64,000 nt of DNA, taken from contig CAZWFY010000009.1 of NCBI GenBank assembly GCA_964633415.1, positions 7,389-71,388 on the forward strand, given 5' to 3'. The notes under the pieces are model-generated. The model did no database searches and had not been told where the DNA came from. It saw only the letters and a list, made by a program, of their open reading frames with translations. The stretch comes from an uncultured Clostridia bacterium (GTDB taxonomy: Bacteria > Acidobacteriota > Aminicenantia > UBA2199). Each line of letters opens with the position of its first letter. The stretch's first letter is position 1. The position numbers were made by a program, and so were the translations under genes. Positions 1 through 45,745 of this stretch are shown here, in pieces.

Positions 1-942
1 TTTAAAATTGTAAATTTTTCCGGGCTTCATAGTTATATATTTTCTAAGATAATCCGTACGGACGATTTTGTTACCCTCAATAATGACTTTCCCAAGCCTG
101 TACCGGGGACCTAATTCAACGGGAATTGAAATTTTTATCATCTTTTGAAATTTCCCGAACAAAGTCATTCTATTTATTCTTGAGAACACAGGCTTACCGA
201 CTTTAGCTTCCAAATATCCCTTCTGCCTTAACCTGTCTCTGACATTCTTTAGGTCTTCTTCCATTTTATCTTTATTATAGACATCTTTTCCGGTCACTGC
301 AGATAAGATACCATGAACTTTGTTATTCTTCATACCCCATCTCAGAAAATATGGAGATACTGTTTTTTTATTCAAACCCGGAAAAACTATTGCTCCGATC
401 CTTGTTTTTGAACCGGGTGAAACCTTAATAAGAATGTCCACCCCGCCTTTTGATTTTTTCTCAATTATTTTTACTTTTCCGTCATTATAACTTTTCTCAA
501 TAAGCAGATCATTGATAACCTTTTCAATTTTTTTAATTTTTGAAGAGTTGTAATAAGAAAAGGTAGTTAAAACAATATTATTTTCCTGAAGCTTATCTTC
601 AATATCACTCTGTTTCAGCTTTTTATCAATCTCATACTTAACGGAATTAATAAGAGGGTTTTCAACTACAATGATTTTTACCTCTTTTCCACCCTCGATA
701 TCATTAACTTCGATCTTTATATTTTTAAAAAAACCGGTTTCCCAGAGTATTTTAAAATCTTTGCGAAGAACTTCAGGCGAATACTCCCCGCCGACTCTCG
801 ACTTAAGATAAAACAGGATAGTATCTTTTGAAACTTTCTTATTACCTTCAACATCTATCTTTTTTATATCCACTGCCATAAGCGACAGTGTAACAAAATA
901 AAGCAAAATTAATATGATGGAAATTTTTTTCATAAACGCCTC
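1..942 (-). CDS. bamA: Outer membrane protein assembly factor BamA, N-terminal POTRA region (partial, 3' end lies beyond the window start)
   Basis: Hand translation of the reverse strand from ATG at 942 stays open to position 1 (314 codons). Signal peptide MKKISIILILLYFVTLSLMA, then POTRA-like IDVEGNKKVSKDTILFYLKSRVGGEYSPEVLRKDFKILWETGFFKNIKIEV. Absent from the ORF track because it runs off the edge. Confidence 0.7.
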
Positions 943-1178
943 ACAAATATGGTTTTTTATATCATAGTTTAGTCTAAAATTCAATTTGGATTTTCTCGGT
1001 CATTCCGATACAAATTTAAAAATATGGAGAATTTCATAACTTTTCGGACGAATAAAAATGGCAAAGAGTTTCATGTTTATAAAAATTTTACACTTTTTTA
1101 ATAATCACAAATCCAATTTTATAAATACTTTTCAATTATCTGAAACTATTCCTTTAATAAATTTTTCATCAACAAATA

Positions 1179-1207
1179 TTGACTTAAAGATCATGTTTCC
1201 ATATACT
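1179..1207 (+). promoter_or_regulatory. Putative sigma70-like promoter: TTGACT, 17 nt spacer, TATACT, about 22 nt upstream of the ATG at 1229
   Basis: Hexamers read directly in the sequence; weak GGAG Shine-Dalgarno follows. Confidence 0.3.
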
Positions 1208-1228
1208 GAATCTTTACGGAGCAAAAAT

Positions 1229-2173
1229 ATGGGAACGGTTCTTATAACAGGAGGAGCAGGATTCATCGGATCTCATCTGTCCGATAGATTTTTAAAAGAG
1301 GGATGGGATGTGATTGTCCTTGACAACCTTCTTACAGGGTCATCAAACAATATTTCCCACCTTATTGGTAAAGAAAAATTTAAGTTCATTAAATATGATG
1401 TTACCGATTACCTTTTTTTTAAGGAGAATATCGACCTTATCCTTCACTTTGCCTGTCCCGCATCCCCTTTTGATTACGCACAGCATCCGATACATACAAT
1501 GAAAGTTGACTCTCTCGGAACTTTGAATACATTGGGACTTGCAAAGAATAAAAAAGCAAGATATCTTTTCGCATCCACTTCGGAAATTTACGGAAGTCCC
1601 GAACAGCATCCGCAAAAAGAAGATTATTGGGGTAACGTTAATCCGGTAGGTCCAAGATCGGTTTACGATGAAGCAAAGAGATTTTCCGAAGCCATGTGTA
1701 TGGCATATTTCAGAGAACACAATATAGATATAAGAATTGCAAGAATATTTAACACTTACGGAACAAGAATGAGACTTCTTGACGGCAGAGTAATTCCTAC
1801 ATTTATCCATCAGGCATTAAAAAATCAATCCATAACAATATTTGGTGACGGATCACAAACAAGGAGTTTCTGCTTCGTTGACGATATGGTGGAAGGGCTC
1901 TATAATTTTGCTACAAAAGACGGGCTTAACGGGGAGGTTGTTAATCTTGGAAATACCGAAGAACATTCAATAAAATTTCTCGCTGAAGAGATAATAAAAT
2001 TAACGGATTCATCATCGGATATTATCAATCATGATCTGCCTGAAGATGATCCTCCTGTCAGACAACCGGATATTTTAAAAGCAAACAGACTGCTTGGCTA
2101 CTCTCCTGAAATTTCTCTCTCGGACGGTCTTAAAAAAATCATTCCGTGGTTTAAGGAAAGAAAAGATGGATAA
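1229..2173 (+). CDS. UDP-glucuronate decarboxylase (UDP-xylose synthase)-like NAD-dependent epimerase/dehydratase
   Basis: Rossmann motif VLITGGAGFIGSHL. Catalytic YDEAKRFSE (YxxxK). GDGSQTRSFCFVDD typical of the UXS/ArnA-decarboxylase subfamily. Start moved to the internal Met (MGTVLITGG) because the 57-aa upstream extension of the ORF has no homology-like features. Confidence 0.8.
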   Translation: MGTVLITGGAGFIGSHLSDRFLKEGWDVIVLDNLLTGSSNNISHLIGKEKFKFIKYDVTDYLFFKENIDLILHFACPASPFDYAQHPIHTMKVDSLGTLNTLGLAKNKKARYLFASTSEIYGSPEQHPQKEDYWGNVNPVGPRSVYDEAKRFSEAMCMAYFREHNIDIRIARIFNTYGTRMRLLDGRVIPTFIHQALKNQSITIFGDGSQTRSFCFVDDMVEGLYNFATKDGLNGEVVNLGNTEEHSIKFLAEEIIKLTDSSSDIINHDLPEDDPPVRQPDILKANRLLGYSPEISLSDGLKKIIPWFKERKDG

Positions 2174-3095
2174 GAGAATTTTCGGTCCGGTACCTTCGAG
2201 ACGACTCGGGATATCACTCGGGATAGATGTTATACCTTTTAAAACCTGTACACTTGATTGTATATATTGTGAATGCGGAAGAACAACCGATCACGGATTG
2301 GAAAGAAAAAGATTCTTTAATCCCGATGAAGTTCTGGAAGAATTGAATGATTATTTAAAAAGAAATATCCCTCTGGATTATATAACATTTTCCGGATCCG
2401 GAGAACCGACATTAAACAGTGATATAGGCTATATTATTAGAGAAATAAAAAAAATCAGTAATGTCCCGGTTGCAGTCCTTACAAACGGCACACTACTTTA
2501 TGATAAAACGGTCAGGGATGAACTTCTTCCCGCAGATCTGGTTCTCCCCTCTCTTGATGCCGTATCCGAGAATATATTTAGAAAAATAAACAGGCCCGCA
2601 AAAGGACTTCATTCATCCGAAATAATTGAGGGTCTTGTTGAATTTTCAAATATTTATAAAGGGAAAATATGGCTTGAAGTCTTCTTTGCAGCAGGAGTGA
2701 ATGATTTTGAAGAAGAGTTGGATAAGCTTTATTCAACAATAAAAAGAATTTCTCCGGACAGAGTTCAGCTTAATTCTCTTGACAGACCTCCGGCATATAA
2801 AAATACTAAAGCAGTTGATATAAATTTTCTTGAACATGTTAAAAACAGATGGAATGATCTTAATGTAGATATAATTAAAAGGATTAGAATGAGGGAGGAT
2901 ATCCCCTCTTTTTCAAAGAATCTTGAAGAAAATATACTTAACACTATTTTAAGAAGACCGCTTACGGTTCAGGATCTTGAAACTTTAACCGGGAAAAGAC
3001 CCGCCGAACTTTTAAAATATATTGATGTCTTAGAGAAGGAAAAAAAGATCAAACCTAAAGTAATAGGCGATAAAATATTTTATACATCAAAATAA
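2166..3095 (+). CDS. Radical SAM protein (CxxxCxxC; COG0731-like Fe-S oxidoreductase)
   Basis: FGPVPSRRLGISLGIDVIPFKTCTLDCIYCECG carries the 4Fe-4S/SAM cysteine triad, and FSGSGEPTLN is the glycine-rich SAM motif. Start at MDKRIF (2166) overlaps the upstream stop by 8 nt. Confidence 0.75.
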   Translation: MDKRIFGPVPSRRLGISLGIDVIPFKTCTLDCIYCECGRTTDHGLERKRFFNPDEVLEELNDYLKRNIPLDYITFSGSGEPTLNSDIGYIIREIKKISNVPVAVLTNGTLLYDKTVRDELLPADLVLPSLDAVSENIFRKINRPAKGLHSSEIIEGLVEFSNIYKGKIWLEVFFAAGVNDFEEELDKLYSTIKRISPDRVQLNSLDRPPAYKNTKAVDINFLEHVKNRWNDLNVDIIKRIRMREDIPSFSKNLEENILNTILRRPLTVQDLETLTGKRPAELLKYIDVLEKEKKIKPKVIGDKIFYTSK

Positions 3096-3171
3096 AAACC
3101 TTTCTTAAATTATACATCTGACTCGATCAATTACACTTCATTTCTTAACTATTTTGTGATATATATTCTCG

Positions 3172-4059
3172 ATGAAATTTGTCACTTTGAAAAAGTGCCC
3201 TTTATGCGGTTCTTCCGAAATCATTGATTTCAAACACGGCACAATTAATGTAAAAAAAATTGATTCCGATAATTTCAAAATAACCGACAGCTCTTACGGC
3301 TCTCTATGGGATTTTTCCCGCTGTAAAAAATGTTCATTTGTTTTTTCTAATCCAAAACTTGATAAAGAGAGTCTTATTGAATTCTATTCGGCACTTGAAG
3401 ACACGGAATATAGTGAAGAAAAAGATGGAAGGGCAAAAAATTTCAAGACGGTATTAAATAGAATAAAAAAACTTCAACCCGCAGATAATTCACTTCTTGA
3501 TATAGGGTCGGCAAGCGGTATTTTTGTAAAACTTGCAAAAGAGAAAGGTTATAATGCAGATGGTATCGAACCATCCGGATTCCTCGTAAAAGAAGCTAAA
3601 GAAAAATTCGGTATAGACCTGTTTAGAGGAACTGTCGAAGAATTTAAAAATAAGCATCGATATTCGGTTATTACTCTTCTTGACATTATTGAGCATGTCC
3701 ACTCTCCGGAAAATTTTATCTCTCAAGTATCGGAATTACTTAATGATAAAGGTCTGCTTGTTATCGTTACGCCCGATATAGACAGTTTTACATCAAAGAT
3801 AACCGGCAGCAGATGGTGGCACTACAGAATAGCTCACATTAATTTTTTTAATAAAAAATCCCTTGAATATTTACTGAAAAAAAACGGATTGGAAATAGTA
3901 GAAGTAAAAAGATATGCATGGAACTTTTCTCTGTTTTATCTTTTATCAAGACTCTTCCCAATGCTCAAAAAGAAAAAAAGTTTACAAAACGTGCTTAAAA
4001 GGATAAACTTAAAAGTACAGCTTTTTGATTCGCTGGAGATATATGCAAGAAAAATATAA
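3172..4059 (+). CDS. Class I SAM-dependent methyltransferase with N-terminal Zn-ribbon (CPLCG...CKKC)
   Basis: Motif I LLDIGSASGIFVKLAKEKGYNADGIEPSG. Four Cys in two CxxC pairs at the N-terminus. Methyltransferase type 11/12-like. Confidence 0.7.
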   Translation: MKFVTLKKCPLCGSSEIIDFKHGTINVKKIDSDNFKITDSSYGSLWDFSRCKKCSFVFSNPKLDKESLIEFYSALEDTEYSEEKDGRAKNFKTVLNRIKKLQPADNSLLDIGSASGIFVKLAKEKGYNADGIEPSGFLVKEAKEKFGIDLFRGTVEEFKNKHRYSVITLLDIIEHVHSPENFISQVSELLNDKGLLVIVTPDIDSFTSKITGSRWWHYRIAHINFFNKKSLEYLLKKNGLEIVEVKRYAWNFSLFYLLSRLFPMLKKKKSLQNVLKRINLKVQLFDSLEIYARKI

Positions 4060-4951
4060 ATATTATATAGAGTCGCTGAGGTTGGAGAGATGGCCGAGAA
4101 GTCTTGCAATTCTTCCGGGTTATATTGCCGCAATTGTATTATTGCCTAAAGAAACCAAAAGTTTTTCTCTTCTTCAGTTGATTCTCTTCCCCTTTGCAGC
4201 TTATATTTTAACTCTTCTGGTCTCGACCGCAAACTATATCATCAATGAAATCGCAGATGCCCCTTTTGATGCTTATCACCCTGCAAAAAAAGAGAGACCT
4301 CTTGTAAAAGGTGTCATAAGTGCAAAGATACTTATGATCATATGGAGCATCATTATTGTTTTTACTTCCGTTGCAGCCTACCTGATTTTTCACAGCAGTA
4401 ATCTTCTTATAACACTCGGCACACTTTTATTAGCGGGAATTCTCTACAATATTCCGCCCATCAGAATAAAAGATATACCTTTCCTTGATTCTACACTTGA
4501 ATCCGCCAACAACCCTATAAGATTCTTGATCGGGTGGGTAGTTATAGCGGGCAACTCTTTCCCGTGGTGGCTTCTGATTTCATGGTGGGCTTTCGGAAAT
4601 TTTTTAATGATAGGGAAAAGAGTTGCCGAAAAAAAGTTTCTGAGTTCCGACGAATCTTCATCATACAGAAGATCATTGAGCAGATATACACAACGAAGTC
4701 TTTTCGTTTTTATGATCCTTAATGCTCTTATCTTTCTCGTTACATTCGCCCTTTTTGCAATAGGATCGGGAATGAATACTTTTCTATATTCGATTCCCTT
4801 TATTATCATTTATCTGATAATGTTCATTAAAAAATCTTTACAGGATATAGACGGTGCGGAAGAACCGGAAAAACTTCTTAAAAATCCCTATTTTGCTTTG
4901 TATACACTTTTTCTGGTTGCGATTTTTTTATTAGCATATATACTTAAATAG
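4043..4951 (+). CDS. UbiA-family prenyltransferase (polytopic membrane protein)
   Basis: NEIADAPFD matches the NxxxDxxxD Asp-rich motif. About 8 predicted TM helices. Start at MQEKYKYY (4043) overlaps the upstream gene by 17 nt. Confidence 0.65.
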   Translation: MQEKYKYYIESLRLERWPRSLAILPGYIAAIVLLPKETKSFSLLQLILFPFAAYILTLLVSTANYIINEIADAPFDAYHPAKKERPLVKGVISAKILMIIWSIIIVFTSVAAYLIFHSSNLLITLGTLLLAGILYNIPPIRIKDIPFLDSTLESANNPIRFLIGWVVIAGNSFPWWLLISWWAFGNFLMIGKRVAEKKFLSSDESSSYRRSLSRYTQRSLFVFMILNALIFLVTFALFAIGSGMNTFLYSIPFIIIYLIMFIKKSLQDIDGAEEPEKLLKNPYFALYTLFLVAIFLLAYILK

Positions 4952-5599
4952 ATGGAAATAGAATTAATTCTTAAAATTTTGCTCGCATCTGCTCTCGGTG
5001 GTCTTATAGGACTTGAAAGGGAACTCTCAGGGAAAGAGGCAGGATTGAGAACAAATATTCTCATAGCAATCGGAAGCACTCTTTTTACCGCCCTTTCATT
5101 TAAGATTGTCAAACTTTCCGGTTCCGGAGATCCTACAAGAATAATAGCTCAGGTAGTTACGGGAGTCGGATTTATCGGTGCAGGTTCGATTATACGTTCA
5201 AAAATATCGGTGCACGGACTTACTACAGCAGCTACAATATGGACGGTATCTGCGATAGGAGTTGTGATAGGTTCCGGATTTTACCTGACCGCTTTTTTAG
5301 TTACGATCCTGTTGGTTTTTATCCTCAATATTTTTAAACACGTTTCAGGACATATAAAAAATAAAATTAAACTCTCTTCATTTTCTCTCACAACAAAAAA
5401 TAAACTTAGTATAGTTACAAATATAAAAAACATTGTAATGGAGTGCGGAATAAATCATTTTGAATGGTCTGTTAAAAAAGTAAAATCAGGATATACAATT
5501 GAATTATCAATCTCATCTACAGATATTAAGAAAAAAAAATTTATGGAAAAGATAATGGAAATGGACGGAATATCAGAATTCTCAAGTGATTCGATCTGA
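4952..5599 (+). CDS. mgtC: MgtC/SapB family membrane protein
   Basis: ILKILLASALGGLIGLERELSGKEAGLRTNILIAIGSTLFT is the signature MgtC N-terminal region. C-terminal soluble domain present. ATG immediately follows the upstream stop. Confidence 0.8.
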   Translation: MEIELILKILLASALGGLIGLERELSGKEAGLRTNILIAIGSTLFTALSFKIVKLSGSGDPTRIIAQVVTGVGFIGAGSIIRSKISVHGLTTAATIWTVSAIGVVIGSGFYLTAFLVTILLVFILNIFKHVSGHIKNKIKLSSFSLTTKNKLSIVTNIKNIVMECGINHFEWSVKKVKSGYTIELSISSTDIKKKKFMEKIMEMDGISEFSSDSI

Positions 5600-6199
5600 A
5601 TGATAGAATTGCTCGTCGCCACATCAAATCAGGGTAAAAAAAAAGAAGTGGAGGAGTATCTTAAGCGGTTTATTCCGGATATCACTTTTATTTCCCTTTC
5701 ATCACTAAAAAATATAACCGAACCTGAAGAAGATTCAATCGATTTTTGGGGAAACAGTGTAAAAAAATCTGTCTACTACAGCTCTAAAGCAAAGGGAATT
5801 ATTACTATGGCAGATGATTCCGGATTATCCGTAGATTCTCTTGGCGGAAGACCGGGTGTTAATTCTTCAAGATATTCAGGTCAGGAATGTGATGACAAAA
5901 AAAATATAGAAAAACTTTTAAAAGAACTTTCCGGGGAAAAAAGAAGAGAGGCAAAATTTATAACGGTTATTACACTTTCCCTTAACGGTAAAATCATAAA
6001 AAGTTTCAGAGGAGAAGTTCAGGGAGTAATCTTAAATGAAAAAAGAGGTTCGGGAGGTTTCGGATATGATTCGGTCTTTTTTTATCCTCCGTTGAAGAAA
6101 ACATTCGCAGAACTTACCGTTAAAGAAAAAAACAAAATATCACACAGAGCAAAAGCTTTGGAAAAAATGAAAAACTTCCTGGTTGACTTCAAACATTGA
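5600..6199 (+). CDS. rdgB: Non-canonical purine NTP pyrophosphatase (RdgB/HAM1 family)
   Basis: LLVATSNQGKKKE, ADDSGLSVDSLGGRPGVNSSRYSG, GFGYDSVF and HRAKAL motifs. Confidence 0.85.
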   Translation: MIELLVATSNQGKKKEVEEYLKRFIPDITFISLSSLKNITEPEEDSIDFWGNSVKKSVYYSSKAKGIITMADDSGLSVDSLGGRPGVNSSRYSGQECDDKKNIEKLLKELSGEKRREAKFITVITLSLNGKIIKSFRGEVQGVILNEKRGSGGFGYDSVFFYPPLKKTFAELTVKEKNKISHRAKALEKMKNFLVDFKH

Positions 6200-6224
6200 A
6201 TCAGTTTAATTTTTTTATAAAGAA

Positions 6225-6539
6225 TCAATTCTTGATATGAAAAAGTAGTCTGAAAGTATCCATCACAAGGCACGATGTTGAATTTGTATTGTTTTTTTTC
6301 AAGAAAATATAATGAAGCTTTCCCCCTATAAACTGACCGGAGAAAAAGAAAAAAACCGAAATTAAAAATGACCGAGCTGACCATCCGAGTCCTGAAAATA
6401 TTCTTAGAGAAATAACAAACGGAACAGGCAGATGAACAGAAAGTACCCACTGGAGCGAAAACTTTTCAGTATTCGATCTCCAATAACCGAATGGAAGATT
6501 TAAAAAAAATATTATCACTCCAAAGAACAGATAACTCAA
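6225..6539 (-). CDS. Possible small membrane protein (104 aa, TTG start) downstream of the rSAM operon
   Basis: Strong AAGGAG sits 7 nt upstream of the TTG start on the minus strand. Product has 2-3 hydrophobic helices. No recognisable family. Confidence 0.25.
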   Translation of the reverse strand: MSYLFFGVIIFFLNLPFGYWRSNTEKFSLQWVLSVHLPVPFVISLRIFSGLGWSARSFLISVFFFFSGQFIGGKLHYIFLKKNNTNSTSCLVMDTFRLLFHIKN

Positions 6540-6656
6540 TTTTTTCTCCTTATAGACTACGGAAAAATTTTAACAAACACTTCTCAACAATTCAAATGAT
6601 GACATTCACGGAAAAGTCGGAGCAAGCAGAAAAAAATTTTATTCATTAATCATTTA

Positions 6657-7607
6657 TTAATACAATTTCTCTAACTTATACTCATAAGGAATAAACATTC
6701 GATCCTTTTTTCTCCCCAAAAATTCCAGAAGATGCTGACCGCAATTACTTCCTATTCTATTCTCTTCCAATTCTCCCACACTTTCGATTATTGAAAAGCC
6801 AGCGGATCTTAATTTTTCAATCTTTTTCGATAATTCCGTTTCCCGGGAAAGATCAAGAATATTGTCAAGTCTATTTTTAACGGCAGTCCTTGTCGGATTT
6901 ACAGGAGTTAATTTAATCAAAAATATTTCAGGATTAAAAACATCTTCAATAATCTCCGGCAAAAAAGGTGTATCCCTTGATATGGCAAAATTAAGAGTTA
7001 TCTTTCTGTCACCGTGATTATAAAAACTATTCCCATATTTTGCAATCTCTCTCAGACTCCATTTTTTCACAGGAATAGCTATATCTCTGTATTTTTCCGA
7101 TGTAGAATGTACTGAAAACTGCATTTGGAAATTACCATCTGCGTATAAATCTTTTTTTACACTAACAAGGTTCGAAAAAAAATTGTTACAACCGACTGGA
7201 GCAACTGTAGAAATGCTTGGTAAAAAACCCGGAGCTTCATAGTGATTATTAAAATTCTTTAATACATTCAATACCGAAGTATTGAATGCCGGTTCACCCA
7301 TTCTTGCAAACTGAATTTTAAACTTTTTTACATTTACCTTTAAGTCCGGGAATCTTTTGCGAATAAGAAAATCTATCTGAGAGAAAATCTCCTTTTCAGA
7401 AAGTTTCCCGTTATAATAAGAACCGGCATCACAAATAGGACATCCGACCGGACATCCGAATAAAGTTGAAACAATCAGAACCCATTTTTCGGATCTTTCT
7501 AATGGAGGCTGTAGAGACTCCACAAACTCCAAATATTTCCCTGACTCCATCTTTGCAATATATACGGTAGCTATATCTTCATTTCCGGATTTAAATAGTA
7601 TTTTCAT
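6657..7607 (-). CDS. Radical SAM enzyme, RlmN/Cfr-like fold
   Basis: GCPVGCPIC is CxxxCxxC. MGEPAFN, FSVHSTS, KLTPVNPTR and IGSNCGQH align with RlmN MGMGEP, ISLHAPN, IPWNPFPG and DAACGQL. The position of the RlmN Cys118 equivalent is Phe. Confidence 0.6.
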   Translation of the reverse strand: MKILFKSGNEDIATVYIAKMESGKYLEFVESLQPPLERSEKWVLIVSTLFGCPVGCPICDAGSYYNGKLSEKEIFSQIDFLIRKRFPDLKVNVKKFKIQFARMGEPAFNTSVLNVLKNFNNHYEAPGFLPSISTVAPVGCNNFFSNLVSVKKDLYADGNFQMQFSVHSTSEKYRDIAIPVKKWSLREIAKYGNSFYNHGDRKITLNFAISRDTPFLPEIIEDVFNPEIFLIKLTPVNPTRTAVKNRLDNILDLSRETELSKKIEKLRSAGFSIIESVGELEENRIGSNCGQHLLEFLGRKKDRMFIPYEYKLEKLY

Positions 7608-8497
7608 GAACTCCTCATATTAAAATATATTTCCATAGCGGTTTTCAAACCATCTCCGACAGCTATTGACACCTGTCTGAAAATCCCGTTCTTAGCATCA
7701 CCTATAATTAATGCTCTCTCTTTTATCATATCCGGAAGGTTGTTATCTCTGTATAATTCTGTGTATAGTACATTGTCGGAAACTCTTCCTGTTGCAAAAA
7801 TCACTGAATCGAATCGTCTGGAAAAATTCTCACTCCCTCCCAAAAAAGATACGATAAGCTTCCCGTCGGAATTATGTTCAATTGATTTTATATAGACACC
7901 GGATAATATCTCACTTTTATCAGACATCCTCACCCTTTCAACAAGAGTACTTAAAGCACGAGGTTTATTTGAACGTAAAGCAATAGTCGTATTATTTGAT
8001 CCGGAAAGAGAGAGAGCATAATCGAATGCAGCATCACCTCCACCGATAATCAGAAAATTTTTCCCCGATAGACCTATAAGTTCTGTAATCTCAAAAAAGA
8101 TATTTCCTTTAATTTCATCGGAAAATCCATCAACAGATTCCGGATATACAGGAACTGTTCCCGTTGCAAAAACGACATAGTCCGAAAAATATATACCTCT
8201 GTCAAAAAAAATTTTGAATCTGTTTTTTTTTCTGTCAAATTTAACGACTTCAACCTTTGAATAGATAACATCAATATCAAGTAAATCCAAGTGTTTACCA
8301 AAAAGATCCGATAAATTCTCTCCGCTTATTCCTTTCGGAAATCCCGGATAATTCTCTATCAAATATCCGTTACGAAGCAGCCCTCCGACTCTTTTCTTTT
8401 CGAACAGGAAAAAACCGATTCCAAATCTTTTTAGCTGAATTGCAAGAGAAATTCCTGCGGGACCGGCTCCGATGACGGAAACACTTCTGAAATTCAT
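7604..8497 (-). CDS. FAD/NAD(P)-dependent oxidoreductase, thioredoxin-reductase-like FNR type (no redox CxxC)
   Basis: VSVIGAGPAGISLAIQL is the FAD GxGxxG motif. LIIGGGDAAFDYALSL is the NAD(P) site. No CxxC disulfide. Overlaps the rSAM gene by 4 nt. Confidence 0.75.
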   Translation of the reverse strand: MNFRSVSVIGAGPAGISLAIQLKRFGIGFFLFEKKRVGGLLRNGYLIENYPGFPKGISGENLSDLFGKHLDLLDIDVIYSKVEVVKFDRKKNRFKIFFDRGIYFSDYVVFATGTVPVYPESVDGFSDEIKGNIFFEITELIGLSGKNFLIIGGGDAAFDYALSLSGSNNTTIALRSNKPRALSTLVERVRMSDKSEILSGVYIKSIEHNSDGKLIVSFLGGSENFSRRFDSVIFATGRVSDNVLYTELYRDNNLPDMIKERALIIGDAKNGIFRQVSIAVGDGLKTAMEIYFNMRSS

Positions 8498-9154
8498 TTA
8501 ACCGAACCGCTCTATAACCTCGTTTGCAAAAACCGGATATGCAAATCCATGTGAAATATTCAGAAGTGATGATAGATGGAAATCTCTATTATAAGTTGCA
8601 GTAAAATCAATCCCGAAAAAAGTATCATACCCTCTTACAAATGCTTCTCTTGCAGTTGTTTCACAACAGAGATGGGTCATCACTCCTCCGATAAGGACCT
8701 GGGTGACATTTTTTGCCTTTAAGATACTTTCCAGATTAGTATTGTAAAATGCATTATACTGCGTCTTTTCAATTACAACTGCTTTTTCACTTAATTCCGA
8801 GTCAATAAGTTCGGAATACTCATCTTCTTTTCTTATGAAATCACGCCACCATTTCCCCATCTGTTCCGCATTCTCTTTTGTATTAATATGACGTGTCATA
8901 ATTACAGGCATTGAGAATTCAAAAAAAATATCACTTATCATCTTGATATGTTTAATAATAGACTCCCCTTGAGGAATAAAAGCATGAGAATTCTTATCAA
9001 AAAAAAATTTTTGCATATCAAGAATCAGGAAACATATATTCCCTTTTTTCATTTTTAATTCGTGCATATCACGAAATTTCAGAATATTTTTTAAAATTCT
9101 ATTTTCAGGATCGTCTTTTATTAAAGAATCAAAATACTTCTCTTTAATCATCAT
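8498..9154 (-). CDS. Isochorismatase-family cysteine hydrolase
   Basis: ICFLILDMQ and VLIGGVMTHLCCETTAREAF match the nicotinamidase/isochorismatase fold with a catalytic Cys. Start taken at the internal MMIKEKYF. The ORF could extend to 9193. Confidence 0.7.
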   Translation of the reverse strand: MMIKEKYFDSLIKDDPENRILKNILKFRDMHELKMKKGNICFLILDMQKFFFDKNSHAFIPQGESIIKHIKMISDIFFEFSMPVIMTRHINTKENAEQMGKWWRDFIRKEDEYSELIDSELSEKAVVIEKTQYNAFYNTNLESILKAKNVTQVLIGGVMTHLCCETTAREAFVRGYDTFFGIDFTATYNRDFHLSSLLNISHGFAYPVFANEVIERFG

Positions 9155-9369
9155 TTCTCTTTCCCCAAACCTATTTTTCTCCCGCAGTTTCAATTAGAGA
9201 GGGTTTTAAAAATTTTTTCATTTGCTTTCCCTTTTTATTGAATAAGTAATTGATTTTAGACTAACAAAAACCATCAGTCAACAGATCAGAACAAAAACTT
9301 TTGCTTAATATTGATTATTTTTTTTAGGATACATAGAATGAACTTGTTAAGATTGATCGGGAGGAATAA

Positions 9370-22320: not shown

Positions 22321-23919
22321 ATGTTTAAGATTAATGATGATCATAAAAGAGAACTTGAAAAAAAAGAGATAACCGTACAATCTTTTTTTTCTCAACTTGA
22401 GAAAATCAGTACCGGCAGTTCATATATTGAACTTGACAGACCTTCTCTTCCGTATGACGGGATAAAGATTTTATCAACTGAGGAACAAGAGAGAATGATC
22501 TCCATATTTTCAAAAAAAAGCAGATTTTATAAAATATCTAAATTTGTTCCCGCTTCCGGTGCGGCAACGAGAATGTTCAAAACGCTGTTCGAAATAAGAC
22601 ATTTGTTGGGATCAAATTCATTTTCAGACAAAATTTTAATGGAAAATTATGAGAATAATCATACTTTAGTGGAATTTGAAACATTTTTAAAAGGAATATA
22701 CTTAAAAAAATTTGCTTTCTCAGAAGATATTTATGTGATTCTAAAGAAAATTGGATTGGGAACCAAAGAGGTTTTGCAAAAAGAAAATTACAGTATAATT
22801 GTCAACTCGATTCTCGATAAAAATGGACTCGACTATGGTAATACACCTAAAGCTCTCATAAAATTCCATAAATATCAGGATACGGGAATAACACCTCTTG
22901 AAGAACACATAAGCGAAACCTGCCTCTATATGGGAAACGATAATCGTGAAAAAATGATTCATTTCACTCTATCTGATCAATATAATGATAAAATTTCTCT
23001 TTTTCTTGATGAGTTAAAAATAAAGTTCTCAAAGATAGGAATGAATTTTTCATATGAAATATCTTCTCAAAATAAAAATACGGATACGGTTGCAATTGAT
23101 CTTAAAGGTAATCCCGTCACTACTCCCGAAGGTAAATTACTCTTCAGACCCGGAGGACACGGCTCTCTCCTCTATAATTTAAACAATATGGACAACGATC
23201 TTATCTTTATCAAAAACATTGATAACATCACAACTTATGATCGTATAAACAGCTCTGTCAATTATAAAAAAATAATGGGTGGAATGATAATTGAGATAAG
23301 AGAAAAAGTTTTTAAATATTTAAACCTTCTTCCGGAGATAAGAAAAGATTCTGAAATTATAAACGATATATATTGTTATTCAAAAGATGTATTGAATATC
23401 GGTTTCAGTAAAGATTTCTCCGAATTTGATATTAATAAAAAAAAAGAGATATTGAAAAACAGACTCAATCGACCTATCAGAGTTTGCGGTATGGTTGAAA
23501 ACAGAGGAGAACCCGGTGGAGGACCATTTTGGATAAAGGGAAATTCCGGCGAAAACATTCTGCAAATCGTGGAAAAAGCTCAGATCAACACATCCGACCT
23601 GAAGCAGATGGAAATCTTAAAAAATTCAAAATATTTTAATCCCGTTGATATCGTCTGCAGCATAACTGATTTCAAAGGGGAAAAATTTCACCTCCCGGAT
23701 TTTTCAGATGAAACGAAATATTTTGTTTCCGAAAAAGATTATAACGGAGAAAAAATCAGAGTATTGGAACATCCCGGACTATGGAATGGAGCAATGTACG
23801 ATTGGATCACTATCTTTGTCGAAACACCTGTTGAAACTTTCAACCCTGTAAAAAGTGTTAACGATCTTTTGAAGAACAATCATATTCCCAAAAAAAATAT
23901 ATGTTTTTATTCAAGATAA
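22321..23919 (+). CDS. DUF4301-like protein, putative UGPase-type nucleotidyltransferase fold
   Basis: PASGAATRMFK, IFIKNIDNITTYD, RPGGHGSLLYNL and ENRGEPGGGPFWIK resemble the UDP-sugar pyrophosphorylase motifs LNGGLGTxMG, SNxDNL, PxGHGD and EGG, respectively. Confidence 0.45.
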   Translation: MFKINDDHKRELEKKEITVQSFFSQLEKISTGSSYIELDRPSLPYDGIKILSTEEQERMISIFSKKSRFYKISKFVPASGAATRMFKTLFEIRHLLGSNSFSDKILMENYENNHTLVEFETFLKGIYLKKFAFSEDIYVILKKIGLGTKEVLQKENYSIIVNSILDKNGLDYGNTPKALIKFHKYQDTGITPLEEHISETCLYMGNDNREKMIHFTLSDQYNDKISLFLDELKIKFSKIGMNFSYEISSQNKNTDTVAIDLKGNPVTTPEGKLLFRPGGHGSLLYNLNNMDNDLIFIKNIDNITTYDRINSSVNYKKIMGGMIIEIREKVFKYLNLLPEIRKDSEIINDIYCYSKDVLNIGFSKDFSEFDINKKKEILKNRLNRPIRVCGMVENRGEPGGGPFWIKGNSGENILQIVEKAQINTSDLKQMEILKNSKYFNPVDIVCSITDFKGEKFHLPDFSDETKYFVSEKDYNGEKIRVLEHPGLWNGAMYDWITIFVETPVETFNPVKSVNDLLKNNHIPKKNICFYSR

Positions 23920-42709: not shown

Positions 42710-42901
42710 ATGATTGGAAGTCTCGGAATTTGGGAAATTTTATTAATTTTTGTTGTTATTGCACTACTTTTTGGCGGAAAGAAACTTCCTGAACTCGGCA
42801 AGGGGCTTGGAGACGGAATAAAAAACTTTAAAAATTCATTAAAGAAAGACACTGATGAAGATAAAGAGGAAAAACAGACCGAGAATGAGAAGGATAATTG
42901 A
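42710..42901 (+). CDS. tatA: Twin-arginine translocase subunit TatA/E
   Basis: [41 protein letters not shown] is a TM helix plus amphipathic helix typical of TatA. Confidence 0.85.
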
Positions 42902-43952
42902 AGAGGCAATAGAGAAGAGAAAGAAAAAACAGCTTGAGATTGAAAATATATTAAAAGATATCGGAGAGTCTATTGGAAAGTCTTCTTTTTTTAAAAGCAG
43001 AAAACGCCGTTTACAAAATCTTTTTTCAAAATTCTCCGAATCCCTTTTTGAATTGATAACCGCTCAGGATAGGGAGTGGGATGAACTCTCTAACAACCAT
43101 TATTCATCAATTTTTAATTCGCTCAGTTCTCAAATTGAAGATCTCTCGGCAAAATTTTCAAACTTTAAAACAGTTACCGGAAATTTTATTGACCTTGAGA
43201 ACAGGCTCGGAGAGTTGATAAAAAAAATTCCCGCCGATACCGGTGTTAAAGAGAAAAACGAATTAAAAAAAATTAAGGATGAGATATCTCCGGTTCAATA
43301 TTCGGATTTTGAAAAGAGATTCAGAGGAAATTCCGAAAAGATCTACGAGAGACAGGAAAAGTATATACAATATTTCAAAGGACAGCAGAATATACTCGAT
43401 ATAGGATGCGGAAGAGGAGAGTTTATCCAACTGCTTTCTGAAAATAATATTGATGCCGAAGGTATTGATATTTCTTCATCAATGCTTAAAGAGGCTAAGG
43501 GAAAAGGTCTGAAATGTAGTGAAGAAGATGCGCTTCAATTTTTAAAGAATAGAAAAGAGAATTCATTGGGAGGAATATTTTCAGCTCAAGTTATTGAACA
43601 CTTCCCTTCAAACTATCTGATTGAGATAGTTGCGGAATCACACAGGGTTTTAAGGAAAGGCGGAATAATTATTTTTGAAACACTTAATCCTCTTTCGCTT
43701 TTTGCTCTTACAAACATCTATTTTCTTGATATAACACATCAAAAACCGCTTCATCCGGAATTTATGAGATATCTCTTTAAGGCATATAATTTTTCAAACG
43801 TTGATATACTCTATTCGGAACCTCTGGATAAACACTACTTAGAGGAAATTCCGGTAGGAAACGGGATTGCGAAACAATTTAACTCAAATGTTGATAAACT
43901 TAATAAAATTCTGTTTTCCTCACCCGATTATGCTATTATCGGGGAAAAATAA
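42885..43952 (+). CDS. Coiled-coil protein with C-terminal class I SAM-dependent methyltransferase domain
   Basis: [15 protein letters not shown] motif I and IIFETLNP. N-terminal ~170 aa predicted coiled coil. Start uncertain; the chosen ATG overlaps tatA by 17 nt. Confidence 0.55.
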
Positions 43953-45745
43953 TGAAGAATATAAGAAACTTTTCTATTATTGCCCATATTGACCATGGGA
44001 AGACAACTCTCTCAGATAGAATACTCGAGATCACAAATGCTGTCTCAAAAAGAGATATGCAGGAACAGATACTTGATTCTATGGAACTTGAAAGAGAAAG
44101 AGGTATTACAATAAAATCTCACTTTGTACGACTTGAATATACATATAAAAACAGAGAAAAATATCTCCTTAATCTTATCGACACTCCCGGACATATTGAT
44201 TTTAACTATGAGGTATCACGTTCACTCTCCGCATGCGAAGGAGCGGTTCTTGTAATTGACTCAACGCAGGGAGTTGAAGCTCAAACCGTTGCGAATACTT
44301 ATCTCGCCGTTGAAAATGACCTTTCTTTAATTCCGGTTATGAATAAAATTGATCTTCCCAATAATGAACTTGAAAAATCTCTTGATCAGATGGAAAGTAT
44401 TATCGGTCTTTCCCGGGATGAATCACTTAACGTCAGTGCAAAAACCGGAGAAGGTGTAAAAGAGATTCTCGATGCAATCATAGAGAGGATCCCCCCTCCG
44501 GAGGGAGATAAATCGAAACCACTTCGTGCTCTTATTTTTGATTCATGGTTTGACCCCTACAGAGGTGTCATAATACTGGTAAGAATTATTGACGGAGAAC
44601 TGAAAAAAGGAGAAAAAATAAAATTCCTTTCAAACGGAGCGGTTTATGAAATAAATGAGCTTGGCGTTCATACTCCCAAGATTGAACCTCTTAAACAACT
44701 TTCGGCAGGAGAGGTCGGATATCTTATAGGAAGTATAAAGAAAATTTCCGAAGTAAAGGTCGGTGATACAATTACTTTGGCAAAGGAGGAGAACATAAAA
44801 CCTCTTCCGGGTTTTAAAGAACCACAGCCTATGGTATTTGCCGGATTTTATCCGGGAGAAGGATCCAGCCATGAAGAGCTCAGAGAAGCAATAGAAAAAC
44901 TCATACTAAATGACTCATCATTAAAATTCGAACCTGAGAATTCTCCTGCCCTCGGCATCGGGTTCAGATGCGGATTTCTCGGACTTCTGCATAAAGAGAT
45001 CATTCAGGAAAGATTGGAAAGAGAATATAATTTATCTATAGTTACAACAGCTCCTTCCGTCAGATATAGAGTGACGACAACAAAGGGAGAGATCTTTGAG
45101 ATCGAATCACCGGCAGACCTCCCCCCTCCTCAACATCTGGCAAAAATAGAAGAACCCTATATTGAAGCAATTATAATAACACCTGATTCATATCTCGGAA
45201 ATATAATGAAACTTCTTCAAAATCGGAGAGGTATTCATAAAAAAATGGACTACATAAGTTCAAAAAGAGTTCATCTGACATATGAACTCCCTCTTGCAGA
45301 AGTTTTATACGATTTTTTCAATAAAATAAAATCGATTTCCCAAGGATATGCATCCTTTGATTATGAACTTCTGGATTACAGAGAATCTCCTCTGATAAAG
45401 CTTGATATTTTGATCAATCAGATGCCTGTCGATGCACTTGCATTAATTGTTCATAAAGACAAAGCTTTTACATACGGGAACCTATTGACATCAAAGATGA
45501 AAAAATCGATTCCAAAACAACTTTTTGAAGTAGTTATTCAAGCTGCAATAAATAAACGAGTAATTGCCAAAACAGTAGTAAAAGCATTGAGAAAAAATGT
45601 TCTTGCAAAATGTTACGGCGGCGATATTTCAAGAAAAATGAAACTTCTTGAAAAACAGAAGAAAGGAAAGAAGAGGATGAAAAGAATAGGAAAAGTAGAT
45701 ATTCCTCAGGAAGCTTTTCTTGCAGCTCTTGAATTGGAAGACTGA
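43952..45745 (+). CDS. lepA: Elongation factor 4 (LepA)
   Basis: [26 protein letters not shown] and NKIDLP GTPase motifs plus the LepA-specific C-terminus. Confidence 0.95.

Follow-up and report, generated by a model that had tools for sequence, protein, structure and literature searches.

What does a UbiA-superfamily membrane enzyme make when the gene next to it encodes a methyltransferase, and which of the surrounding genes take part? The question is raised by a block of genes at positions 1229-6199 of a 64,000-nucleotide stretch of DNA from an uncultured bacterium of the Aminicenantia (contig CAZWFY010000009.1, positions 7,389 to 71,388; hereafter the window, meaning the whole stretch). 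The original prediction, made from the sequence alone, read the block as a single operon for a modified polyprenyl-linked pentose or glycolipid. Our analysis indicates as the functional unit two translationally coupled genes, that of the methyltransferase (MT, 3172-4059) and that of the UbiA-like enzyme (4043-4951). We judge it probable that the two enzymes use phosphoribosyl pyrophosphate (PRPP) to make a pentofuranose donor that is methylated and carried on polyprenyl phosphate, and that the first two genes of the block lie outside the pathway. The features of the block are as follows.

1179-1207, + strand: promoter-like site TTGACT-17-TATACT, a consensus match only, the count of such sites not being above that in shuffled sequence
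1229-2173, + strand: predicted UDP-glucuronate decarboxylase (UDP-xylose synthase, UXS), an extended short-chain dehydrogenase/reductase (SDR) of 314 aa, assigned by UXS1 similarity and Pfam Epimerase
2166-3095, + strand: radical S-adenosylmethionine (SAM) protein (rSAM), 309 aa, with Pfam Radical_SAM and a CX3CX2C motif
3172-4059, + strand: Zn-ribbon class I SAM methyltransferase (MT), 295 aa, with Pfam Methyltransf_23 and four N-terminal Cys residues
4043-4951, + strand: UbiA-superfamily membrane enzyme, 302 aa, resembling decaprenylphosphoryl-5-phosphoribose (DPPR) synthase by NCBIfam and PDB profile match
4952-5599, + strand: predicted MgtC/SapB-family membrane protein, 215 aa, with Pfam MgtC
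5600-6199, + strand: RdgB/HAM1 non-canonical purine NTP pyrophosphatase, 199 aa, with TIGR00042 and Ham1p_like

The block contains six + strand genes, not the seven first announced under a title that itself named six. The family labels given to them were confirmed by Pfam and NCBIfam, and every junction coordinate proved correct on re-reading. The SDR and rSAM genes overlap by 8 nt (ATGGATAA), the MT and UbiA genes overlap by 17 nt, and the UbiA/MgtC and MgtC/RdgB pairs both abut, so that four of the five junctions overlap or abut; the remaining one is a 76-nt gap between rSAM and MT, where MT could have a promoter of its own. Reading frames that overlap or adjoin in this way are commonplace in bacterial operons.

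Conservation of the methyltransferase-UbiA unit

We scanned one genome per species and recovered 80 loci with relatives of the UbiA-like protein (39 to 71% identity), nearly all of them in Aminicenantes metagenome-assembled genomes (MAGs); the loci with UbiA homologues were labelled Aminicenantes or Acidobacteriota. Neighbours were counted by tblastn with the six window proteins, using as denominator the loci with enough sequence. MT lies immediately 5' of UbiA in 74 of 77 loci, RdgB lies 3' of it in 64 of 67, and MgtC stands between UbiA and RdgB in 58 of 72. The exception for MgtC includes one divergent Aminicenantes subclade that lacks it in the block, with UbiA followed directly by RdgB. 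The rSAM and SDR genes were found 5' of UbiA in 11 of 72 and 7 of 65 loci, respectively, in both cases among the window's closest relatives only. Beyond the MT-UbiA-(MgtC)-RdgB genes the flanks vary by lineage and consist of an S9 peptidase and GlgC, of GAPDH and PGK, or of the bamA cluster. A metagenome scan for the rSAM protein returned at least 529 relatives, and its full-length orthologues (40 to 60% identity) had no SDR, MT, UbiA, MgtC, or RdgB gene within 7 kb and no shared neighbour. Because of these neighbour counts, the varying flanks, and the occurrence of rSAM orthologues away from the other genes, we conclude that the conserved unit is MT-UbiA-(MgtC)-RdgB and that SDR and rSAM became its neighbours recently and in one clade only. 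The two genes that had been counted as pathway members are present in only about 10 to 15% of related loci, and in Aminicenantes no neighbours of the MT-UbiA pair are better conserved than MgtC and RdgB, whose pairing had been called unusual.

These counts bear directly on the proposal that all six genes form one glycolipid route similar to those for 4-amino-4-deoxy-L-arabinose (Ara4N) or decaprenylphosphoryl arabinose (DPA), in which the SDR would supply UDP-xylose or a UDP-4-keto-pentose, rSAM and MT would modify it, and the UbiA-like enzyme would link it to lipid. The single strand and the overlapping or abutting junctions agree with such a route, the SDR-rSAM-MT-UbiA order recurs in about 9 to 13 close relatives, and the position of the block, divergent to bamA-skp-fabZ-lpxA, makes an envelope role plausible. 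The SDR is also, as far as its sequence can tell, clearly a UDP-glucuronate decarboxylase, a bona fide UXS: it aligned to human UXS1 over residues 4-310 with 338 bits (E 4e-100), compared to at most 135 bits for the next SDR class and 96 bits for ArnA, and it scored 181 bits against Pfam Epimerase. However, apart from the low frequency of SDR and rSAM near UbiA and the rSAM orthologues found without SDR, MT, or UbiA nearby, a peptidase gene is interposed between rSAM and MT in one locus (L012), and neither SDR nor rSAM occurs in the sister-clade modules described below. The UXS product UDP-xylose serves Leloir transferases, and the enzymes that move UDP-sugars onto polyprenyl phosphate are GT2 family members such as ArnC and GtrB; no GT2 of the ArnC/GtrB kind is encoded in the block. 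Validated DPPR synthase (DPPRS)-type enzymes take their pentose from PRPP and not from a UDP-sugar (PMC10994848, PMC11127046). Since DPPRS-type enzymes do not use UDP-sugars, the SDR is unlikely to feed the UbiA-like enzyme, and UDP-xylose, the pentose donor originally put forward, is an unlikely one. That the SDR might epimerise the lipid-linked sugar, in the manner of ArnA or ORF13, was also considered and rejected, since its sequence clearly marks it as a UXS orthologue and it is not conserved along with the module. A six-gene route is, in our assessment, very unlikely.

The MT and UbiA reading frames overlap in most loci, and in one Aminicenantes MAG (L019:7116-8906) the two form a single 596-aa reading frame, which is either a natural fusion or the product of a frameshift within the overlap. 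Fusions of Methyltransf_23 and UbiA domains, 612 to 652 aa long, also occur in four distant lineages, each represented by its own cluster at the 50% identity level (P0187, P0199, P0208, and P0256), in a search that covered the 150 best cluster representatives. The N-terminal halves of all four are full-length MT homologues, Zn ribbon included (31 to 33% identity, E 1e-49 to 1e-60). The relatives of P0187 include HAD-UbiA fusions and a HAD-MT fusion, and in P0326 MT is fused to HAD.

Further fusions in the UbiA clade are a GT2-UbiA protein (591 aa) and long forms of 735 to 854 aa (P0227, P0176, P0353, and P0338-P0347). One of the long forms, P0353, comes from a cultured acidobacterium, Luteitalea sp. 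TBR-22.

Predicted activities of the two enzymes

The class of the UbiA-like enzyme was assigned by hidden Markov model (HMM) and PDB ranking. Its best NCBIfam matches were DPPR-synthase models at 88, 81, and 64 bits, none of them at cutoff (87.7 versus 234 for NF008977 and 80.9 versus 207 for NF008978). The next match was a HAD-fused "UbiA family" model at 49 bits, and the models for MenA, UbiA, heme O, DGGGPS, and chlorophyll synthase scored at most 35 bits; Pfam UbiA scored 68 bits. A profile built from 26 family members and searched against 177,635 PDB sequences (E ≤ 1) had a single match, the Mycobacterium tuberculosis decaprenyl-phosphate phosphoribosyltransferase Rv3806c (8j8j/8j8k), at E 3.8e-17. 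The choice that the original prediction had posed between a DPPR-synthase-like, a MenA/UbiA, and a DGGGP-synthase-like protein is answered by these rankings in favour of the first. The AlphaFold2 (AF2) model (pLDDT 84) adopts a UbiA fold, and its first-ranked structural match is 8j8j.

The PRPP contacts of Rv3806c and its mechanism were taken from the structure paper (PMC10994848). The UbiA-like protein keeps 9 of the 11 PRPP-contact residues, namely, in Rv3806c numbering, R22, K28 (as Arg), Y70, N73, D77, K87, R90, Y138, and K143, and these are invariant in the family. The residues for Mg2+ and pyrophosphate are R13, N68, D72, K82, R85, Y135, and K143 in the window protein (equivalent to R22, N73, D77, K87, R90, Y138, and K143). 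Among the phosphoribose contacts Y70 is kept and K28 is replaced by Arg; Q135 is replaced by Gly and Y157 by Asn throughout the clade, its HAD-fused members included. The N-terminal 44 residues of Rv3806c used here are presumably correct, their numbering being in agreement with the structure paper and with the PDB-profile alignment. Together, the sequences place the UbiA-like enzyme in a putative distinct, uncharacterised branch of DPPRS-like enzymes that carries an E74/G135/N157 signature. The branch has 239 clusters at E ≤ 1e-30 in a protein library clustered at 50% identity.

The MT matched Pfam Methyltransf_23 at 93 bits and also Methyltransf_11, _12, _25, and _31, and the Cys residues of its Zn ribbon (C9, C12, C51, and C54) are conserved. 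The top Foldseek matches of its AF2 model (pLDDT 91.5) were the NDP-sugar C3-methyltransferases MtmC, KijD1, and TcaB9, with E values of 1e-15 to 1e-13, TMq of 0.60 to 0.67, and about 305 aligned columns that include the Zn domain.

The same comparisons address a second alternative, that the pair consists of an aromatic prenyltransferase and an O-methyltransferase in the style of UbiA/UbiG or MenA/MenG and makes a quinone-like or phenolic lipid. Automatic JGI annotations on many homologues read "4-hydroxybenzoate polyprenyltransferase" and "polyprenyl-benzoquinol methylase," UbiG (TIGR01983) is the best NCBIfam match of MT, and UbiG structures match its SAM-binding core. However, the UbiG match reached only 50.2 bits versus a cutoff of 102.95, with the SAM core alone aligned, and the UbiA, MenA, and MqnP models scored at most 30 bits against the UbiA-like protein, versus 88 bits for DPPR synthase. 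No aromatic prenyltransferase structure matched the UbiA profile at E ≤ 1, the fold of MT is nearest to sugar methyltransferases, and the recurring partners of the clade are a HAD phosphatase and a GT-C glycosyltransferase in glycan loci. Quinone biosynthesis was rejected on these scores, profile matches, partner genes, and MT fold, and we regard it as highly improbable.

Sister-clade operons and the proposed route

The partner genes were seen in a sister clade, the contexts of which all come from metagenome assemblies. In L175, a HAD gene is followed by MT, UbiA, and a PMT_2-type GT-C gene; the HAD and MT reading frames overlap, as do those of MT and UbiA. L091 contains a HAD-MT fusion, then UbiA and a PMT_2 GT-C, and then ABC-2 transporter and GT4 genes. 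In L174, which has no MT, PMT_2 precedes a HAD-UbiA fusion amid GT87, GT4, acyltransferase, and Wzy genes, and in L089 an MT-UbiA fusion is followed by a multi-transmembrane (multi-TM) protein of no family and then by HAD. The HAD proteins of the four loci are orthologous to each other, as are the GT-C proteins of L175 and L091. None of the four modules contains SDR, rSAM, MgtC, or RdgB.

Multi-TM or unassigned proteins directly follow MT-UbiA fusions in L089 (12060-13751) and after P0199 (a 492-aa gene), and they had no Pfam or NCBIfam match; these proteins may be unrecognised GT-C-type transferases. The genes flanking the L089 fusion gave only weak VWA-like matches or no family.

By homology, we propose that the UbiA-like enzyme, most likely of the DPPR-synthase/PPPRS type, would transfer ribose-5-phosphate from PRPP to polyprenyl phosphate at the cytoplasmic face of the membrane. 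The fusions, the operons, and the fold of MT suggest that MT most likely methylates the lipid-linked pentose, by O- or C-methylation. After dephosphorylation and flipping, as the sister-clade operons suggest, a GT-C encoded elsewhere would transfer the methyl-pentofuranose to an envelope acceptor. SDR and rSAM would have joined the upstream end of the unit in the window's close relatives only and would not be parts of the pathway. The MT-UbiA pair is best read as a version of the known lipid-linked pentofuranose systems to which a methylation step has been added. The earlier idea of a DPA-like, modified polyprenyl-linked pentose was reasonable for two of the six genes, but it probably named the wrong source of the pentose.

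Several observations weigh against the proposed route. The UbiA-like protein scored far under the NCBIfam DPPR-synthase cutoffs (88 versus 234 bits), and the whole clade has Glu in place of D74, Gly in place of Q135, which contacts the ribose O3, and Asn in place of Y157, which contacts the 5-phosphate. These substitutions and the sub-cutoff score make a donor other than PRPP possible. The fold search cannot tell DPPRS from AfUbiA, DGGGPS, and other UbiA folds, the TM-scores being 0.64 to 0.70 for all of them. MT is weakly similar to UbiG (50 bits) and lacks the defining Pfam domains of TcaB9-type enzymes, Methyltransf_13 and Methyltransf_14. Finally, no HAD or PAP2 phosphatase and no GT-C was found in the 64-kb window or within about 8 kb in the 80 Aminicenantes loci. 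In the window, the search combined hydropathy profiles and Pfam with tblastn, for which the sister-clade HAD and PMT_2 proteins were the queries; the only multi-TM window open reading frames (ORFs) besides UbiA were an MFS transporter and an M48 peptidase. No flippase of the MATE or SMR/GtrA type was recognised by Pfam in the block, its neighbours, or the other window ORFs scanned, a screen that did not take in every ORF and did not extend to flippases in the related loci.

MgtC is the sole small multi-TM protein of the block, and its sequence is that of a typical predicted member of the MgtC family (PF02308, 131 bits versus a cutoff of 31.4; NF007431, 151 bits versus a cutoff of 214). RdgB scored 170.3 bits against TIGR00042, passing the cutoff of 145.35, and 194 bits against Ham1/RdgB (Ham1p_like). 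In about 12 Aminicenantes loci, an adenine phosphoribosyltransferase (APRT)-like gene (Pfam Pribosyltran; for example, L035:11071-11583) lies a few genes 3' of RdgB. This is another PRPP user near a PRPP-type membrane transferase, and its position may be a coincidence.

MT, UbiA, MgtC, and RdgB could also be one system, in which MgtC would be a membrane partner, flippase, or regulator and RdgB would act on the nucleotide or PRPP side. The counts for MgtC and RdgB given above agree with this, as do junctions that abut or overlap down to 39% UbiA identity while the outer flanks change, a block without a dedicated flippase or phosphatase gene, and the APRT-like PRPP enzyme downstream. Since no flippase is linked and the MgtC gene abuts UbiA, a partner role for MgtC is possible but speculative. 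Against such a system, one Aminicenantes subclade lacks MgtC in the block, the sister-clade modules never include MgtC or RdgB, and RdgB passes the cutoff for the canonical house-cleaning equivalog and is a pyrophosphatase, not a phosphomonoesterase. A literature search returned no published link between MgtC and a UbiA-type enzyme, and shared regulation or descent alone can conserve operon membership. We consider the four-gene system unlikely. A broader proposal, that MT-UbiA has a housekeeping function across Aminicenantes in making a methylated, lipid-linked pentofuranose for an envelope polymer, as a Gram-negative counterpart of the mycobacterial DPA pathway, with MgtC as its dedicated membrane partner (flippase or regulator), we hold to be more doubtful still; if it were true, the MgtC family would gain a primary biochemical role. 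For the preferred two-gene reading, we treat MgtC and RdgB only as conserved, presumably co-transcribed neighbours, the linkage being confined to Aminicenantes.

Surroundings of the block and comparison with known systems

The block starts at 1229, the SDR start being supported by a GGAG ribosome-binding site and by a product length that agrees with homologues (314 to 317 aa); a longer ORF from an upstream ATG at 1058 was rejected for the same reasons. The promoter-like site lies 22 nt 5' of this start, inside the 295-nt intergenic region between the block and the divergent bamA gene, the orientation of which (minus strand) was read from locus L001. In the promoter and terminator scan, counts did not exceed the shuffled expectation, and no intergenic terminator was listed within the block. 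An Rfam scan of 700-6800 (E ≤ 1) returned zero RNA families and hence no PRPP, Mg2+, or SAM riboswitch.

The rSAM protein matched Pfam PF04055 at 65.3 bits (cutoff, 29.5) and has the cluster motif C28-x3-C32-x2-C35. Its NCBIfam matches were all far under cutoff and its PDB matches weak (NifB and MoaA), so that it belongs to no known subfamily, and its C-terminal region is unassigned. The rSAM family is very widespread (loci L124-L173) and includes forms of about 255 aa (about 33% identity) on human-gut metagenome contigs, which lack the C-terminal 60 or so residues; no conserved neighbours were seen.

A locus identical to that of the window is present on a 101-kb metagenome contig (ENA ERZ27262693, k141_860239). 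Downstream, the block converges with a small membrane ORF and then a three-gene set. The former (6225-6539, minus strand) encodes a hydrophobic protein of 104 aa right after RdgB that belongs to no family, and an ORF of the same size and placement occurs in L009. The latter (6657-9193, minus strand) consists of three overlapping genes for a Cfr/RlmN-like radical SAM protein (no Pfam match), a TrxR-like flavoprotein, and an isochorismatase-family hydrolase. This set is a recurrent neighbour: in L032, L035, L041, L046, and L048 it comes after RdgB in the same orientation, and in L042 and the window it is on the opposite strand. The other window ORFs scanned encode housekeeping-type and outer-membrane proteins. 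The gene at 22321-23919 encodes a DUF4301 protein (584 bits). Methyltransf_23 occurs a second time in the window, in a 365-aa protein (42855-43952) whose stop adjoins the lepA start (43952-45745).

DPPRS-type enzymes make lipid-linked pentofuranose donors, among them mycobacterial DPA and the undecaprenyl-phosphate ribofuranose (Und-P-Ribf) of Gram-negatives; they are drug targets and drive surface-glycan diversity. The locus suggests that the DPPRS family has a large branch, as yet uncharacterised, that is repeatedly fused or operon-linked to a Zn-ribbon MT, a HAD phosphatase, and GT-C transferases, and from this methylated pentofuranose donors are predicted. The literature that we searched contained no description of an MT-UbiA module or of pentofuranose-donor methylation as a tailoring step. 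The locus also flags the unexplained, class-wide linkage of the pair to MgtC and RdgB in an uncultured lineage. The two-gene pair of the window and the four-gene operon of L175 are testable, clonable candidates.

The closest characterised relative of the UbiA-like enzyme is Rv3806c. Both proteins have 302 aa, with 28% identity between them, and they have in common an N-x-x-x-D-x-x-x-D/HPxKxxRP loop, a GKRxAE loop, and a C-terminal G-x-EPE motif. Unlike Rv3806c, the window protein has no DprE1/DprE2 epimerase or Rv3807c-type phosphatase as neighbours and has a methyltransferase partner instead.

The architecture of the window MT, with a Zn domain of four Cys at the N terminus and a class I SAM fold after it, is also that of TcaB9, KijD1, and MtmC. 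The sequence match to TcaB9 is weak (about 41 bits) and covers residues 39-249, and MT is about 120 aa shorter than TcaB9-type enzymes (295 versus 416 aa). The lack of the C-terminal (nucleotide-binding) domain of the TcaB9 family and of its Pfam signatures fits a substrate that is not nucleotide linked. Unlike that of TcaB9-type enzymes, the substrate of MT is probably lipid linked rather than dTDP linked.

The Ara4N lipid A pathway (ArnA-ArnT), also a scheme for modifying the envelope, is similar in its polyprenyl-phosphate pentose and in the PMT_2 (ArnT-like) GT-C found in sister-clade operons, and in the window a UDP-GlcA-decarboxylating SDR adjoins the module. It differs in that the SDR is of the UXS type (338 versus 96 bits to ArnA), in that ArnB, ArnC, and ArnD homologues are missing, and in the use of a UbiA-type synthase in place of a GT2.

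The systems most like the sister-clade operons are those in which PPPRS, a phosphatase, a flippase, and a GT-C attach pentofuranoses to bacterial glycans (PMC11127046), as in the three-component system of Citrobacter youngae with the ORF15 PRP-PPPRS, a MATE flippase, and a GT136 GT-C (Kelly et al. 2024, PMC11127046). Like these, L175, L091, and L174 combine a UbiA-like synthase with a fused or adjacent HAD phosphatase and a GT-C. In the UbiA clade, by contrast, the first motif reads NE instead of ND and the GT-C is of the PMT_2 type, and the window and the Aminicenantes loci differ in having MgtC and RdgB linked instead of a phosphatase and GT-C. A Zn-ribbon methyltransferase inserted or fused in the UbiA clade is a further difference, the sole methyltransferase mentioned in PMC11127046 being the unrelated chain terminator WbdD. 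The logic shared with the three-component systems is that of a lipid-linked pentofuranose donor for extracytoplasmic glycosylation.

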